From a phage: DNA of 64,000 nucleotides. The notes under the pieces are model-generated. The model saw nothing but the letters and a program-made list of their open reading frames with translations, was not told where the DNA came from and ran no database searches. Made by a program: the position numbers and the translations under genes. The first letter of the stretch is position 1; each line of letters starts with the position of its first letter. This document shows, piece after piece, positions 4,505 to 20,455 of the stretch. Location: the sequence record PZ809289.1, one strand, 5' to 3'.

Positions 4505-4534
4505 GTTTACAAACCTCAGAGGACAGGGTATAAT
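4505..4534 (+). promoter_or_regulatory. early promoter (GTTTAC / TATAAT)
   Basis: GTTTAC 4505-4510, TATAAT 4529-4534 inside palindrome GAGGACA...TGTCCTC. Confidence 0.5.
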
Positions 4535-5219: not shown

Positions 5220-5756
5220 ATGAGTTTATATGATAACCTTATATCAAATATTGATTGGTTTAAAAATAGTGGTCTTTCCCATGAAACCAATGCAGTTCTT
5301 TATAGAATTCGCCAAGACCTAGGCTATTCAAACGATTTCTTAAGCAGAACATCTAGCCGTGGCGATACTACCAAATTACCTTTTATTTTTGCTTTAGCTG
5401 AAGACCTTTCTTTTGAAGATGCTTTGGAAATTATTGACGTAAATCTGGCTATTCAACGAGTGGAATTCGCTGGACTACGTTATTCAGTATATTCTTTAAA
5501 CGAGAGCGCTGATTGTGTGCTTCTTAATATGGCAGACGATGATTACCATTTAGTATGCTATGTAGCTTTAGAAAATGGTGATGTATTTGGAATGGTTGAC
5601 CGTCGCCCATCTTACTCTGATATTAAAAATTACGATAAAGATGAGCTTATTATTTTGGCTAATGAGTACACATTAGAAAGTCGTAAACAACAACGTAAGC
5701 TTAATCGTTTTATTGCTGAATGTCGCGAATACGCTAAAGAGGTTCAAAATGCATAA
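5220..5756 (+). CDS. hypothetical protein
   Basis: Strong SD GGAGGAGAGGAG; 178 aa; C-terminal region contains NRFIAECR motif shared with two other genes. Confidence 0.6.
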   Translation: MSLYDNLISNIDWFKNSGLSHETNAVLYRIRQDLGYSNDFLSRTSSRGDTTKLPFIFALAEDLSFEDALEIIDVNLAIQRVEFAGLRYSVYSLNESADCVLLNMADDDYHLVCYVALENGDVFGMVDRRPSYSDIKNYDKDELIILANEYTLESRKQQRKLNRFIAECREYAKEVQNA

Positions 5757-6102
5757 GCCTAGTAAAACCGACCCTGGTTACGCATTAGCAGATTACGATA
5801 TCTCTATTTCATTATTCCTCGGCATTGCTACTAGTATGACTGCAGGGATAATTGGATTTCTTGTCGGTGGGATTATTAATGGTATGCCTCGCCATCCGTT
5901 TGAAGATATGAGCCTCGCGTGGATTTGGGTTCCGGCTTTAATAGGATTTTTTATCCCATGGGTCTTTGATATTGCCCAAACTAATAAAATAAACAAGCCA
6001 CGTAAAAAGAGATATGCTTTAGCTATGGCTAATTATAATGAGTATGTAAAACAAACTAAACGTAATGACCTTGAAACCTTTATTAAGGAATGTAAATCAT
6101 GA
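5749..6102 (+). CDS. membrane protein
   Basis: ATG 5749 overlapping upstream stop, SD AAAGAGG; two hydrophobic helices; C-terminal ETFIKECKS. Confidence 0.5.
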   Translation: MHKPSKTDPGYALADYDISISLFLGIATSMTAGIIGFLVGGIINGMPRHPFEDMSLAWIWVPALIGFFIPWVFDIAQTNKINKPRKKRYALAMANYNEYVKQTKRNDLETFIKECKS

Positions 6103-6389
6103 ATAAAATTGAAATTGAAATCCCGGAACACAATGACGAGAAATCTGCAGAAAAGGCTATCTATGCTCTTCTGAATAAAGTGAATACCATCGAACATGAA
6201 TGTGAAGCTATTGCCGATAAGTATGGTATCCAATTCGGTACTGGTGATTATGGTTCAGGCCGTACATATTATCCTGTCGGTTATGAATGCTCCCAGTGGT
6301 TTAAAGATGAAATTGAAAACAACGGTGGTGAAGTTGAAAATGGCGTCGTTACAGTTGGTGCTTGGATCTCCTCTTCGGCAATGTGCTAA
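6099..6389 (+). CDS. small acidic protein, member 1 of a tandem paralog array ending in C-terminal Cys
   Basis: ATGA overlap; ends GAWISSSAMC; shares ADKYG core with next gene. Confidence 0.6.
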   Translation: MNKIEIEIPEHNDEKSAEKAIYALLNKVNTIEHECEAIADKYGIQFGTGDYGSGRTYYPVGYECSQWFKDEIENNGGEVENGVVTVGAWISSSAMC

Positions 6390-6398
6390 GGAAATTTT

Positions 6399-6680
6399 AT
6401 GATGAATGATTACCATAAAAATAAAGAGCTGGCTGACGCAGTAAATGATATCCACAAAGCTATTCGTCGTGCTGAGGAAATTGCTGACAAATATGAGACT
6501 CATTTTAATATATACCCTGCTCGCGGTATGGGCGGTGACTATTATTCTCCTGGCGCCTTGAAAGCCGACCTTGCCCACTGGGAAGAATACGGTGAAGCTC
6601 AGTACGCTATTGTAAACCAACATGATTACACTACCAGCCTAGAAAATGGTGGTTGGGTGTCCTCTTCTTCTGAATGTTAA
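6399..6680 (+). CDS. small acidic protein, paralog 2
   Basis: SD AAGGAAA; ends GGWVSSSSEC. Confidence 0.6.
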   Translation: MMNDYHKNKELADAVNDIHKAIRRAEEIADKYETHFNIYPARGMGGDYYSPGALKADLAHWEEYGEAQYAIVNQHDYTTSLENGGWVSSSSEC

Positions 6681-6689
6681 GGAAATAAA

Positions 6690-6902
6690 ATGACTATTGA
6701 TGAAATTGAAAACCAAATCCGTGAATTAGTACGTAAAGGCCAGTCTGTGGCTGACGAAACGGGTGAAGAGTTCCGTGTTTCTGGTCGTGGAGAATACATT
6801 TCTCCAAAGAACCCGGAATATGATGATTACGAATGGGTCCGTGATGACTACGGTATTCCGGAAGGTGAAGGTTTCTGGTTTACATCCTCTATGTCTTGCT
6901 AA
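6690..6902 (+). CDS. small acidic protein, paralog 3
   Basis: SD AAGGAAA; ends GFWFTSSMSC. Confidence 0.6.
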   Translation: MTIDEIENQIRELVRKGQSVADETGEEFRVSGRGEYISPKNPEYDDYEWVRDDYGIPEGEGFWFTSSMSC

Positions 6903-6913
6903 GGTGATAAAAA

Positions 6914-7138
6914 ATGTCTGATATTAATGAATTAGAAAAAGCTGCACTTGAACTGGCTGCACTGTATAAGAAAGTAAAAGATATGGCTTCTGCTCAAAGT
7001 TTTGGTGTTGAGCTCGACGATTATGACGGTGAAGTTCGTCTCGAAGATTGGCTGAATAGCTCGTGTTATGGCGAAGAAGCTGGTCGCACCTTCGTTGCTC
7101 GGGCCGATGGTAAAATCTGGTATCCGAGCTCATGCTAA
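6914..7138 (+). CDS. small acidic protein, paralog 4
   Basis: SD AAGGTGA; ends KIWYPSSC. Confidence 0.6.
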   Translation: MSDINELEKAALELAALYKKVKDMASAQSFGVELDDYDGEVRLEDWLNSSCYGEEAGRTFVARADGKIWYPSSC

Positions 7139-7359
7139 AATTAAAGAAAAGATACATTCGTAAAATAAATGGTCTTCGCGATTATGCCAAAGGTTGGCCG
7201 TTAAGTATTATTATGGCTGATAGACACCCGCGTTATAATACTGAGATGACTTATTACAAAAAGTACGATTCATATTGTCGGTCTAAAGCAGGTCGTTTAG
7301 ATGGTTCTTATGAAGACTATTTCGGTAAAAAACCTACTCGTATTTCGTTAGGAAAATAA
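7132..7359 (+). CDS. hypothetical basic protein
   Basis: ORF overlapping preceding stop; 75 aa. Confidence 0.4.
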   Translation: MLKLKKRYIRKINGLRDYAKGWPLSIIMADRHPRYNTEMTYYKKYDSYCRSKAGRLDGSYEDYFGKKPTRISLGK

Positions 7360-7389
7360 TTTAACCACATGGATGTGGTAGGAGGACTT

Positions 7390-7719
7390 ATGCATAAAGA
7401 TTCAGTATTCAAATATCTTTTGAAAACAAATAAAGAATTCTATATGAATGGACAGGCCTTCTTGTTCGTTCGTGGTAAACGTGAGATGTTTTACAAATGC
7501 GACCTCTCAATGCACCATCATATGTATCACACCCGCGGTGAGCCTATACTGGGGTTCTCTGGTGACGAGACTAGACACATAGCTATGTACTACGACCATT
7601 TTAAGCTCAATGATTGTGGTGACAACGCTTTGGTCTGGAACCCGTCTTGGCGTCGTTGGGATACAGTAGACAATGATAAATTATTTTTAGAATATTGCAG
7701 AAGTGATGTACAACTCTAG
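7390..7719 (+). CDS. hypothetical protein
   Basis: ATG 7390 four nt after GGAGG; His/Cys-rich. Confidence 0.5.
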   Translation: MHKDSVFKYLLKTNKEFYMNGQAFLFVRGKREMFYKCDLSMHHHMYHTRGEPILGFSGDETRHIAMYYDHFKLNDCGDNALVWNPSWRRWDTVDNDKLFLEYCRSDVQL

Positions 7720-7762
7720 AAAATCATGTTACTATTACCCTACACAAACATGAGGAGAACAT

Positions 7763-8002
7763 ATGTGGTATTACGCTCCGATGTCCGATAAGTCTAATGA
7801 ACCGGTACGCATTACTCGCGCCAAGTTTAAAAAGATTTATGGCTTCTCTTATAAGAAGTCTGATTACGGTGTTCGTTTTGAAGATGCCCACTGTATCAAT
7901 GACCCTTATGCTGAAGAAATCTCTAATGAGATAATTCCTATCATTAAGAATAATTCTGATGATATGTGGGAATTGCATAACGATTACGTCGCTGAAATTT
8001 AA
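7763..8002 (+). CDS. hypothetical protein
   Basis: SD GAGGAG; 79 aa. Confidence 0.5.
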   Translation: MWYYAPMSDKSNEPVRITRAKFKKIYGFSYKKSDYGVRFEDAHCINDPYAEEISNEIIPIIKNNSDDMWELHNDYVAEI

Positions 8003-8021: not shown

Positions 8022-8981
8022 ATGATGTTAGTTATTGGTTCTCGTGCACTGCACCACGCTGGTCTGATTGAAAGTAAGCATATCGAAAATTCTGATTGGG
8101 ATTTCATTGCCGACCAAGGCTCATGGAATCACTTTAAAGCACGTATGTTCGGCGCCCATGTACACGTTGACAATCCTGATGTCCAGGCTTTCAAATGTAT
8201 GCATAATGGTAAAGAAACCTATTTTGAAGCTTATATCGTTCGTGCTCTGACTAACGTACGAGAAATTACCGGTGAGCTTCAAGACGAAGATTTCACTTCA
8301 AGCTATCGTCTCCTGAAATATGCTGAAAATCATATTAAAAAGGACCGTCTTACTGGTTTCTATTGGGCCACCCCTGATATCTGTCTGGCTATCAAAACCT
8401 CTCATCGTTTCCTTAAGAATAATCCGTTCTTCTTGAAAACCATGTCCCACATCAAATACCTTCGTAATAAAGGTATCACCCTTAACGAAGAACTCCAGGA
8501 AATTATGTTGCAACGTCAAAAAGAAACGTTGAGCTATTCCCACCCTAAATTGGATGTAAACAAATCATCGTTCTTTAATGATACCATTTATACGCTGGAC
8601 CATGACTCTATTCATGAAGCAGTGGCATTGGCAGGGCGCCCTGCATATACCTTTTATATGAAGGAAGGTTCTGAAGTCATGACCTCTCGTGAGAAGTTCG
8701 AGGCTTTGCCTGAAGCTATTAAACTGGCTGGTGTATATGAAGAAACTTGTGTCCTGGCACTAGAACGTTCACAGGTTCCTAATGACTTCAATATTTCACC
8801 ATCATTAAGTTTTTATATGGCTCTTGAGAAAGTGTGTACCTCAATCACTTCAGGTTGGTTCCGCGAGTACGCCTGGGAAAACTACCAAGCTGTAGTGAAT
8901 ATGTATAAGACTTTAGGTGAAAACGACTACATTGAACGGTTTAAGCGTAACCAACATTTAATTCGTCCTTTCGAAAAATAA
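8022..8981 (+). CDS. putative nucleotidyltransferase-fold protein
   Basis: ATG 8022 after GAGGAAA; N-terminal IGSRALHHAGLIESKHIENSDWDFI resembles minimal NTase G-S...D-x-D motif, later HVHVD; about 320 aa. Confidence 0.45.
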   Translation: MMLVIGSRALHHAGLIESKHIENSDWDFIADQGSWNHFKARMFGAHVHVDNPDVQAFKCMHNGKETYFEAYIVRALTNVREITGELQDEDFTSSYRLLKYAENHIKKDRLTGFYWATPDICLAIKTSHRFLKNNPFFLKTMSHIKYLRNKGITLNEELQEIMLQRQKETLSYSHPKLDVNKSSFFNDTIYTLDHDSIHEAVALAGRPAYTFYMKEGSEVMTSREKFEALPEAIKLAGVYEETCVLALERSQVPNDFNISPSLSFYMALEKVCTSITSGWFREYAWENYQAVVNMYKTLGENDYIERFKRNQHLIRPFEK

Positions 8982-18853: not shown

Positions 18854-19413
18854 TGTTTCACTATGCGGCGATGAATTCCGGGAAAACCGCTTCATTGCTA
18901 ACGGCAGCTCATAACTACAAAGAACGTGGTATGGGCGTACTCCTTTTAAAGCCTGCGATAGACAATAGAGAATCAAGCCATAGCATTTCGTCTCGTATAG
19001 GGATTAGTCAAGAGGCTAATGCCGTGACTCCGGATATGGACCTATACGAGTTCTATCGTTGGGCTGAATCTCAAAAAGATATCCACTGTGTATTTGTGGA
19101 TGAAGCACAGTTCTTAGAACCTGCACAGATAAAACAACTGGCAAAGATAGTAGACAATTATAATGTTCCGGTTATGTGCTATGGACTAAGAACTGATTTT
19201 CAGGGTAAACTGTTTCCTGGCTCTGCTGAATTACTCGCTACAGCAGATAAACTCGTTGAGTACAAAGGTGTGTGCCATTGCGGCCGTAAAGCTACTATGA
19301 CGGCTCGTATCCAGGATGGTATCGCAATTAAGGACGGCGCCCAAGTTTCTATAGGTGGCAACGATTCTTACGTGTCATTGTGCAGGAAGCACTGGATAGA
19401 AATAACGAGTTGA
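18841..19413 (+). CDS. tk: thymidine kinase
   Basis: MASLMFHYAAMNSGKTASLL P-loop, VFVDEAQFL, CHCGRKA zinc motif; colinear with T4 Tk. Confidence 0.95.
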   Translation: MASLMFHYAAMNSGKTASLLTAAHNYKERGMGVLLLKPAIDNRESSHSISSRIGISQEANAVTPDMDLYEFYRWAESQKDIHCVFVDEAQFLEPAQIKQLAKIVDNYNVPVMCYGLRTDFQGKLFPGSAELLATADKLVEYKGVCHCGRKATMTARIQDGIAIKDGAQVSIGGNDSYVSLCRKHWIEITS

Positions 19414-19420
19414 GGGTATT

Positions 19421-19699
19421 ATGGACCTAAATTCAAAGATTTTAATTCTAGCGTTCGCTGTGGCCATTTCTTATATTGTTCTTTCGCCTATCATGGATGA
19501 TGTGGCTTACAAAAGAGAGATAGAGGTTGTAGCAGCGACGTATAATGCTAATAATAAAGAGTGTCCTAATAAAAATGGGATGGATTTAATTAAAGCGCAT
19601 TATATGCTTTCCATTACCTCGCCTATACAGAGGAATTGGGTTGAATATAATTTTAACGACGTGTTCTATTCTTATTGTCGTAAGCTTAAAAAGCTATAA
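19421..19699 (+). CDS. small membrane protein (T4 rI.1 position)
   Basis: N-terminal transmembrane segment; SD GAGGG. Confidence 0.45.
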   Translation: MDLNSKILILAFAVAISYIVLSPIMDDVAYKREIEVVAATYNANNKECPNKNGMDLIKAHYMLSITSPIQRNWVEYNFNDVFYSYCRKLKKL

Positions 19700-19702
19700 A
19701 TA
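19695..19702 (+). promoter_or_regulatory. late promoter TATAAATA
   Basis: Exact TATAAATA in intergenic region upstream of rI-like gene. Confidence 0.4.
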
Positions 19703-19791
19703 ATAATACTAACCGTAGAGCTTTAGCTTTTGGTAATCGCTATCGGTTAAGGCCGAAAGGCAAATAGTATAAAACAACAAAGGACTTTTGT

Positions 19792-20085
19792 ATGGATATT
19801 TTCCGTACAGCGGCTTGTATCCTTATGGCGGGATGTTTAAGCCCTACAGTTTCACTAGCAAATAATACCAATGATAAATTGATGGATGCATTTGCTAGTA
19901 GTGCGATGCCTGTTTATGCGCAAATGAGTAGACCCAGCGTAAAGGCCTCCGAAGACTATTGGGCCTATGTTACGGCTTCCTGGAAGATTTCAAGTTGTCG
20001 GACTATAGAAGCGTGCTCAATTGAAGGTCGGGCCATCGGAGAGCGTTATGTAAAACTAATGAAGGTGGAAGATGAAGTTCAATGA
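19792..20085 (+). CDS. rI: RI-like lysis-inhibition antiholin
   Basis: 97 aa, N-terminal signal-anchor, Cys-containing periplasmic domain; adjacent to tk as in T4. Confidence 0.55.
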   Translation: MDIFRTAACILMAGCLSPTVSLANNTNDKLMDAFASSAMPVYAQMSRPSVKASEDYWAYVTASWKISSCRTIEACSIEGRAIGERYVKLMKVEDEVQ

Positions 20086-20455
20086 TTTCGTACCCGGTCG
20101 AGGGTCTGAAGTGGATTCTTATATTGGTTGGCTACTGGTTTCTTTAGCCTATTTTAAGTCAGCCCATTTAGAAACCAAAAGCTATGCAAGACACAAAGCG
20201 TATGACTTCTATTATGTAGAAGTTCAAGGACCGCTGGACCAATTTAGTGAGCAATATCTTGGGTTCAGTGGCAAAGAATATAAAGCATCATTACCGTCTG
20301 CTTCAGACTTGCCTAAGGACCCGGTAGATTTTCTTGACGAGCTTCTTAAAGCATCTGATAAAATCTATGACACCCTTCCTAAGGCCATCCAGTCGACTTT
20401 GGACGATATCACTGGCGTCTTTTACCAGACTAAGTATTTGCTGACGTTAGAATAA
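20072..20455 (+). CDS. hypothetical protein (T4 rI.-1 position)
   Basis: 127 aa ORF overlapping rI stop. Confidence 0.45.
   Translation: MKFNDFVPGRGSEVDSYIGWLLVSLAYFKSAHLETKSYARHKAYDFYYVEVQGPLDQFSEQYLGFSGKEYKASLPSASDLPKDPVDFLDELLKASDKIYDTLPKAIQSTLDDITGVFYQTKYLLTLE

Follow-up and report, generated by a model that had tools for sequence, protein, structure and literature searches.

Tandem Cys-terminal small proteins and a linked nucleotidyltransferase in T4-like and other phages

Four paralogous genes and their C-terminal motif

The genes of interest lie in a 64,000-nucleotide (nt) stretch of phage DNA (sequence record PZ809289.1; this whole stretch is hereafter the window), the source of which is a Dhakavirus (JS98/Bp7/WG01-type, a T4-like coliphage). 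Four consecutive genes encode small proteins that end in cysteine, here called Cys-tail paralogues 1–4; on the same strand, beginning 884 nt after paralogue 4, is a gene for a nucleotidyltransferase (NTase). The five genes are listed below, with protein lengths in amino acids (aa) and matches to PHROG families or to a local family hidden Markov model (HMM).

6099..6389, + strand: Cys-tail paralogue 1, 96 aa, ending GAWISSSAMC; phrog_899 (E 2.8e-23)
6399..6680, + strand: Cys-tail paralogue 2, 93 aa, ending GGWVSSSSEC; phrog_899 (E 1.5e-20), local family HMM (E 7e-33)
6690..6902, + strand: Cys-tail paralogue 3, 70 aa, ending GFWFTSSMSC; phrog_899 (E 6.2e-14), local family HMM (E 3.7e-26)
6914..7138, + strand: Cys-tail paralogue 4, 74 aa, ending KIWYPSSC; phrog_899 (E 1.8e-9), family HMM (E 1.3e-12)
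8022..8981, + strand: NTase, 319 aa, polymerase-beta superfamily; DUF7277 and DUF7275; PHROG 2141

The four small open reading frames (ORFs) are separated by gaps of 9, 9 and 11 nt, and their products are acidic (isoelectric points 4.17–4.88). A first-pass annotation, made from the letters of the window, had described just such a tightly spaced, acidic, Cys-terminal array, and the span, lengths, tails and acidity are as it claimed. It had also proposed that the four proteins are paralogous, which is borne out by their common match to phrog_899 (E 3e-23 to 2e-9); in the family scan of loci, the local family HMM matches all four (E 1e-12 to 1e-27). The AD[KE][YT]G core that it assigned to the whole set holds for three proteins (IADKYG, IADKYE and VADETG), but the fourth reads VKDMAS. 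Columns that are invariant in the alignment include D40, F46, W67, W89, S92, S93 and C96. Paralogue 2 has the YGMGG-type family loop (ARGMGGDYYSPG), and the tail of paralogue 4 is a short-spacing form, W-x-x-S-S-C. An AlphaFold2 (AF2) model of paralogue 1 (predicted local distance difference test, pLDDT, 91.3) consists of a long helix (residues 14–42), a small beta-sheet and a C-terminal strand-turn.

Orthologues of paralogue 1 occur in Dhaka-, Mosig-, Karam-, Moon- and Marfavirus and in Aeromonas phages. Window bases 5700–7400 are matched by 85 phage records (vB_EcoM-E33 at 99.5% identity), and the annotation of this region in the matching records reads 'hypothetical protein' throughout, bar some evident mislabels. 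Scans of the small proteins against Pfam, NCBIfam and PADLOC gave no significant match. On some GenBank records, the small genes or the NTase carry the labels 'tail completion protein', 'prohead assembly scaffold protein', 'major capsid protein' or 'inhibitor of prohead protease'; these structural-protein labels appear to be shifted or automatic misannotations.

A profile of the paralogues and their close homologues (A2) was scored against 1.84 billion cluster representatives (E ≤ 1e-3), returning 435 clusters at 50% identity; nearly all matches extend to the final residue. Conservation in orthologues, set beforehand as the test of the terminal motif, persists far beyond T4-like phages. Cys is the last residue in 136/147 newly retrieved distant representatives (among 150 listed; the remainder mostly end in Cys plus one residue) and in 127/129 unique family ORFs from fetched loci, while 256 of 273 unique database members have W-x-[SAPTGN]-S-S-(x-x)-Cys at the C-terminus. 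The spacing from Trp to Cys is seven residues in 99 cases, five in 23 and eight in five, and the invariant core is thus W-x-x-S-S, zero or two residues, and Cys. Family members are acidic, alpha/beta proteins (median length 85 aa) with a consensus order: a helix with ..IAD.., F-x-F, a loop (A)YGMGG(T)YYP, an acidic Trp/Ser-rich linker, and the tail. A single Cys is invariant across the family, and neither a CxxC motif nor a His/Cys cluster is present. This points away from a redox function and from a metal ligand, the latter being one of the roles that the first-pass annotation had suggested for the terminal Cys; the others—a shared modification or a thiol-dependent interaction—are compatible with the sequences.

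Two further origins of the terminal Cys were considered and ruled out. Firstly, Cys could end these proteins by chance. However, Cys makes up 1.36% of residues in the window ORFs, and among 118 non-overlapping window ORFs of at least 60 aa (ranked by length) the sole Cys-ender is one of the four paralogues; this low frequency, together with conservation of the tail, rules out chance. Secondly, the cause could lie in the DNA (an overlapping Shine-Dalgarno sequence, or stop context). The terminal Cys is encoded by both TGC (91 cases) and TGT (36), each Ser of the tail is specified by TCN codons in some members and by AGY codons in others, and every one of the three stop codons is found among the genes. 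This mixed usage rules out a DNA-level cause and indicates that the terminal motif is under strong selection acting on the protein, rather than on an overlapping DNA signal.

Each of the four paralogue types (GAWVSSSxMC, GGWVSSSxEC, GFWFxSSMSC and IWxPSSC) is kept across several T4-like genera, suggesting that their roles are non-redundant. The tail motif also recurs internally: paralogue 4 has a copy, DWLNSSCYG, at the conserved Trp of its second helix (residues 46–54; window about 7049–7075), and many distant members have extra W-x-S-S-x-C(YG) copies, up to three (e.g., ...WNSSGCEWESSGCY...GWNSSSAHC). Proteins of 106–151 aa that score under the family HMM threshold share the tail (..DWDSSSMYC, ..DWSYSSQDC; loci L028 3270–3710, L030 3807–4262, L034 4600–4920 and L076 2257–2712, the last being PHROG 23943), and so the tail reaches more distant or unrelated bodies. 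A divergent Otagovirus-like sub-branch ends ...C-E-W-E-x-S-A-x-x-x-D-Y-G-W-[ND]-[ILV] (L027 4753–5184; L028 3673–4143; L030 4286–4693; L034 4939–5358), stopping where other members continue S-S-x-x-C; it coexists with canonical Cys-tailed paralogues.

No bacterial or archaeal homologue of the small family was found in 185,579 species genomes, a pattern-limited scan that does not prove absence. Among 310 further matches there were no domain fusions or informative names (a single JGI label, 'seryl-tRNA synthetase', looks spurious). A full-text literature search found no paper naming phrog_899, DUF7275 or DUF7277, or describing the terminal motif.

The small family and the NTase form a two-part phage module

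The NTase first stood out as a gene of about 300–320 aa that comes after the small genes in several phages. Loci were fetched from both sides of the pair. In 37 of 39 loci fetched by the small family alone (pattern YGMGGTY), the NTase lies 0–1.5 kb downstream on the same strand; the remaining two loci end at a contig edge, giving 37/37 informative loci with the NTase, among them jumbo contigs of 355–389 kb. Fetching by the NTase alone gave 1–4 family genes upstream in 29/30 loci, including distant viruses at 43–59% identity. In the set of 185,579 bacterial and archaeal species genomes, the NTase was found on only five phage-like contigs from metagenome-assembled genomes, with Cys-tail genes upstream in 4/4 informative loci. 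Independent gene calls with precomputed Pfam assignments place the pair in Myxococcus phage Mx1 and three metagenomic contigs, where the other neighbours are unrelated (Macro/HopBF1 kinase, desaturase/phosphatase, RecA/DnaB). The pair is also present in Otagovirus M5.1, jumbo phage 7t3, Phapecoctavirus Ro121lw, Shewanella Thanatos-1 and Acinetobacter Henu6.

The arrangement of the two parts varies. In Aeromonas phage 25 the small gene has been relocated beside nrdD, and a 47%-identical NTase still follows it. The order is reversed in Xanthomonas X1 (L095 4429–5785) and Stenotrophomonas Moby (L096 4707–5460), where the NTase precedes its three or four Cys-tailed genes. Between the partners, T4-like loci mostly contain two or three unrelated small ORFs; a spacing of 6–100 nt is found in most other lineages. 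Across 72 loci, the number of paralogues is one (n = 17), two (n = 27), three (n = 3), four (n = 24) or six (n = 1). The small family and the NTase are a conserved two-part module, found in phages and phage-like contigs only. Judged from genome sequences, the two parts are likely to be functional partners.

Two candidate additions to the module were rejected: (i) the 79-aa ORF that precedes the NTase is missing from Aeromonas phage 25 and from the majority of distant loci, and (ii) linkage to glutaredoxin, MazG and ribonucleotide reductase (RNR) genes is confined to the Otagovirus-like lineage. In the Otagovirus-like loci (L028, L030, L033, L036, L076), a glutaredoxin/NrdH-like gene lies within 3 nt of, or overlaps, a family member of 61–65 aa; a MazG-like pyrophosphatase is situated between paralogues, and RNR genes are upstream.

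The abutting glutaredoxin-like gene is the kind of neighbour expected if the small proteins work independently of the NTase, with a terminal Cys that is redox-active or metal-binding (e.g., as a client of glutaredoxin, or in thiol-dependent contact with a host protein) and an NTase that is adjacent through inherited synteny. Such a function would also suit the position of the Aeromonas phage 25 module among nrdD, nrdC.2 and nrdH, and the fact that Cys is the single most conserved residue. However, the glutaredoxin adjacency is limited to one lineage, while the NTase stays linked even where the module has moved, its order is inverted or all other neighbours have been exchanged; moreover, the single invariant Cys belongs to no CxxC site, His/Cys cluster or thioredoxin fold. 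We consider an NTase-independent thiol or metal function improbable.

The constancy of the NTase, and of no other neighbour, also bears on the idea that the small proteins are precursors of ribosomally synthesized and post-translationally modified peptides (RiPPs), in which the Ser-Ser-Ser-x-x-Cys end would be dehydrated, cyclized (lanthionine or aminovinyl-cysteine, AviCys, type) and released as a peptide. The S-x-x-C-COOH end is reminiscent of the acceptor sites in lanthipeptides or AviCys peptides, and RiPP loci typically contain several precursor paralogues. Against this, the whole protein, tail included, is confidently predicted to fold (AF2 pLDDT 91 overall, 78 in the last block), rather than to consist of a leader and an unstructured core, and no dehydratase, cyclase, flavin decarboxylase (LanD) or radical-SAM family was seen among the window neighbours scanned with Pfam and PHROG or in the precomputed Pfam assignments of distant loci. 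A RiPP-like origin for the tail is extremely unlikely.

The remaining features of the window region are as follows.

4506..4534, + strand: candidate early sigma-70-type promoter, TTTACA-17-TATAAT (11/12 matches, a consensus match alone), upstream of the e.6 homologue
7132–7359, + strand: intervening ORF, PHROG 7065, function unknown
7369/7390–7719, + strand: intervening ORF, PHROG 9796, function unknown
7763–8002, + strand: intervening ORF, PHROG 3723, function unknown

The three intervening ORFs (7132..8002), the first of which overlaps paralogue 4 by 7 nt (ATGCTAA), are lineage-specific inserts outside the conserved module: they are absent from most non-T4-like loci, in which the last family gene lies at the short distance from the NTase given above. 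The true start of the second is probably 7390, because its PHROG 9796 match begins at residue 8 and GGAGGA precedes ATG 7390; an inverted repeat, ACCACATCCATGTGGT, at 7364–7390 covers the ATG at 7369. The candidate promoter may drive the whole tightly packed block, and no convincing terminator was seen between it and about 9 kb. Two ORFs on the − strand overlap the paralogues (6255–6623, 122 aa; 6924–7157, 77 aa) and are favoured by a length-based gene picker; these antisense ORFs are almost certainly spurious. The corresponding region of Bp7 is bounded by an e.6 homologue and e.2/nudE/e. In T4, neither the four small genes nor the NTase was found in the syntenic e.2–e.6 locus, the only part of the T4 genome scanned.

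Upstream of paralogue 1, two otherwise dissimilar neighbour proteins (window 5220–5756 and 5713–6102) share a terminal F-[IV]-x-[ED]-[CS]-[RK] peptide, reading FIAECREYAKEVQNA and FIKECKS, respectively. The T4 counterparts are FVIDCRKIK (e.3), FVKESRCKSQS (e.4) and FVKECREYVK... (e.5), and PG7 and CC31 have a similar ..NFIR[IM]CRKN.. stretch. In this hyperplastic region, the shared end may serve as a linker for recombination or to couple translation.

The NTase and the possible role of the tail

Of about 50,700 sequenced phage genomes, 734 encode the NTase. When the 319-aa protein was scanned against Pfam at E ≤ 0.1, the sole matches were PF23940 and PF23942; NCBIfam and PADLOC scans gave no match. 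Thirty diverse homologues share an invariant G6-S7, D25-x-D27 and E69, the polymerase-beta nucleotidyltransferase signature. Also common to the 30 are K125, H128, K139, D193-H194-D195 and H198, and a C-terminal stretch, GVYEExCVLALERS...ALEKVCTSITSGWFRE, is highly conserved. The folds nearest to the AF2 model (pLDDT 91.5; predicted template modelling score 0.85) are tRNA-3'-OH and sugar-OH nucleotidyltransferases. Of the features that define MenAT and AbiE enzymes, polymerase-beta motifs I and II (hG[GS], DxD) and a bi-lobed, MenT-like fold are present. From the model, the protein looks to be an NTase of MenT/ANT-like fold with intact catalytic residues, and is predicted to be active. Its C-terminus continues past the MenT-like core with an additional helical region that is strongly conserved (KVCTSITSGWFRE).

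We favour a reading in which the small proteins would be dedicated clients of the NTase, the invariant tail engaging the enzyme. The tail Trp, the Ser hydroxyls and the free terminal carboxylate would occupy the acceptor site, which in MenT or ANT enzymes receives a tRNA 3'-OH or a sugar hydroxyl, and the paralogues would represent diversified 'bodies' with one common enzymatic 'handle'. The tail looks like an acceptor or handle because it is the most conserved part of the family, nucleophile-rich, strictly terminal, selected at the protein level and, in some members, copied internally. It is a plausible acceptor mimic, given that an aromatic residue, consecutive hydroxyls and a free carboxylate resemble the 3'-OH of a nucleic acid or a sugar hydroxyl; the obligate genomic partnership makes the NTase the probable user of such a handle. 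A further and more speculative step would be that the NTase moves a nucleotide onto a tail nucleophile, either Ser-OH or (less likely) Cys-SH. These components differ in strength. That the tail is a docking or acceptor element for the NTase is a serious possibility, falling a little short of likely; the client/substrate model as a whole is a tentative preference, possible rather than probable; and covalent nucleotidylylation of the tail is somewhat unlikely.

Several observations weigh against the client reading. Firstly, in the model of paralogue 1 the tail is no floppy peptide but packs against the domain as a strand and short turn (pLDDT 78). Secondly, an acceptor Ser by itself gives no reason for Cys as the final residue; indeed, the requirement for a terminal Cys is explained by none of the models considered and is the most puzzling feature of the system. 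Thirdly, the Acinetobacter phage Henu6 member (L094 1872–2060), encoded upstream of the NTase, is a rare natural variant in which Ser replaces the terminal Cys (...GEWSASSENS). Fourthly, C272 of the NTase is absent from two enzymes with Cys-tail neighbours, being Ser in L063 and Ala in L073; these same two cases weaken a fixed disulfide between the tail Cys and C272, which had been considered and was set aside. Two more, concerning the enzyme's partner-less homologues and its possible substrate, are taken up below.

Family neighbours are missing beside the shorter NTase homologues (253–263 aa) of Streptomyces, Gordonia and Vibrio nt-1 phages, and tblastn alignments to these homologues mostly cover the DUF7275 region alone. 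Residues R165, Y172, H174, C272, S277 and R281 are kept in NTases with family neighbours; in three partner-less homologues they are lost, and the catalytic core is kept. These three are also the most divergent homologues, so that the correlation is confounded by phylogeny. Loss of some residues where the partner is absent, together with strong conservation of the extra helical region, would also fit small proteins that serve as specificity adaptors: each paralogue would bind the NTase through the common tail and direct it to a different tRNA, RNA or host protein, itself remaining unmodified. One enzyme accompanied by several long-maintained, divergent paralogues, with only the tail, the YGMGG loop and the IAD helix in common, is what adaptors would predict. 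However, 17 of the 72 loci have a single small gene, and we know of no precedent for adaptor subunits in MenT/ANT-type NTases. We regard adaptors as quite unlikely.

The substrate may also lie elsewhere. The window encodes tRNA-Met(CAT) and tRNA-Arg(TCT) at 1800–1870 and 2583–2657, 5–6 kb upstream of the module, and in Shewanella phage Thanatos-1 (L098 4459–4606) the same tRNA-Met/tRNA-Arg pair lies 10 nt downstream of the NTase. A tRNA cluster is one gene away from the NTase of Enterobacter phage CC31 (L090 about 19066–20111), and the Gordonia homologue likewise neighbours tRNA genes. Since the NTase is near tRNA genes in several phages, tRNA is a possible substrate; it could be the real one, with the small proteins acting as modulators and not as substrates.

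Phage CC31 also provides a natural deletion of all Cys-tail genes. This cultured phage encodes an NTase that is 100% identical to that of phage PG7 (305/305 residues). PG7 has two small genes, whereas a scan of the complete CC31 genome revealed no family member and no W..SS..C-tailed ORF; in CC31, one small ORF and the tRNA cluster take the place of the segment that precedes the NTase. The small genes are thus dispensable for propagation even with the NTase present, which also argues against a strict antidote role for them. For experiments, CC31 and PG7 constitute a ready-made, isogenic-like pair.

Known systems and the significance of the module

The closest known architecture is that of MenA1-MenT1, in which a 68-aa protein, MenA1, neutralises MenT1. 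By analogy, the phage NTase would resemble a MenT-type, tRNA-modifying toxin, and the small proteins would neutralise or time it, the tail plugging the active site as a pseudo-substrate. The points of resemblance are small gene(s) upstream and a MenT-like NTase downstream, as in MenA1-MenT1 (PMC10435456; PMC7450476); a small protein of about 70 aa with a long helix beside a bi-lobed polymerase-beta-type enzyme, as in MenAT and AbiE; the acidity of the small proteins and the N-terminal position of their helix; conserved catalytic G-S and DxD residues, with conserved Lys and Asp residues that may correspond to C-terminal-lobe motifs III and IV; and tRNA genes close to the NTase in several phages. 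However, CC31 retains the enzyme without any family member, and up to six paralogues, of four types kept across genera, are hard to square with redundant antidotes. The MenT phospho-acceptor (T39 in MenT1, S78 in MenT3; PMC10435456; PMC7450476), a Ser/Thr located two positions ahead of the first catalytic Asp, has no conserved equivalent in the phage enzymes: the window NTase has N23 there, and other lineages have K, C, P, N, R or I. The small proteins have no sequence or fold similarity to MenA1 or to any antitoxin in the PDB, and the pattern-limited scan found no homologues in the bacterial chromosomes in which toxin–antitoxin systems reside. We consider an antitoxin-like role unlikely.

Further differences separate the module from these systems. 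The phage NTase has no DUF1814/AbiEii match, belongs to its own families (DUF7277, DUF7275) and is about 120 aa longer than MenT1. Its small partner is unrelated to MenA1 and AbiEi in sequence and fold, occurs in 1–6 copies and has a unique C-terminal Cys motif; and, unlike MenAT, the module was found only in phages and phage-like contigs, not in bacterial chromosomes, with CC31 as an enzyme-only phage. What is new here, relative to MenA1-MenT1, is the fold of the small protein, the terminal motif, the multi-copy arrays, the restriction to phages and the distinct NTase family.

Dedicated protein substrates are known for other polymerase-beta NTases: GlnD with PII, GlnE with glutamine synthetase, and MntA with HepT, all of which modify an internal Tyr. 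The phage module is alike in pairing an NTase of this fold with a specific protein, in which a hydroxyl side chain would accept the nucleotide. It differs in its candidate site, which would be the Ser-rich, Cys-ended extreme C-terminus, in being unrelated in sequence, and in that any modification is hypothetical. ANT(2'')-Ia and LnuA, which are small-molecule O-nucleotidyltransferases and much shorter at about 160–180 aa, are resistance enzymes that act on antibiotics and have no dedicated protein partner. In microcin C, MccB is an E1/ThiF-like adenylating enzyme and MccA a 7-aa peptide ending in Asn; the likeness is an invariant C-terminal residue on a ribosomal product encoded beside a nucleotide-transferring enzyme, whereas the phage enzyme is a polymerase-beta NTase and its putative client a folded, Cys-ended protein of 70–100 aa. 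Finally, small acidic phage anti-defence proteins include the DNA mimics Ocr, Arn and ArdA and the nucleotide sponges Acb2 and Tad. Like these, the Cys-tail proteins are small, acidic, early-region accessory products of a kind often multiplied in hyperplastic regions; the first-pass annotation had called such gene-family expansion typical of host-interaction factors, a role that our results neither support nor exclude.

In its fullest form, the client reading would describe a phage post-translational system, in which a MenT-like NTase nucleotidylylates, or extends with nucleotides, the Ser/Cys-rich C-terminus of small effectors, and the conjugates act on host targets or defence. We hold this to be fairly unlikely. 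If true, protein-nucleotide conjugates might mimic a nucleic-acid 3' end or a nucleotide signal, and the arrays would be a diversified effector repertoire.

Both parts of the module are catalogued solely as 'unknown function' (PHROG 899, PHROG 2141, DUF7275, DUF7277) despite their wide spread, which takes in T4-like coliphages, Phapecoctavirus, Otagovirus, jumbo phages and a Myxococcus phage. So strictly conserved and widespread a two-gene module in lytic phages likely serves a general infection step or counter-defence. The W-x-S-S-S-x-x-Cys terminus is a sharply defined, mutable handle that, together with the PG7/CC31 pair, makes the question directly testable. Since the NTase is closest in fold to bacterial tRNA-targeting toxins of abortive infection, the system could be a phage-side use of that chemistry, or a counter to it.

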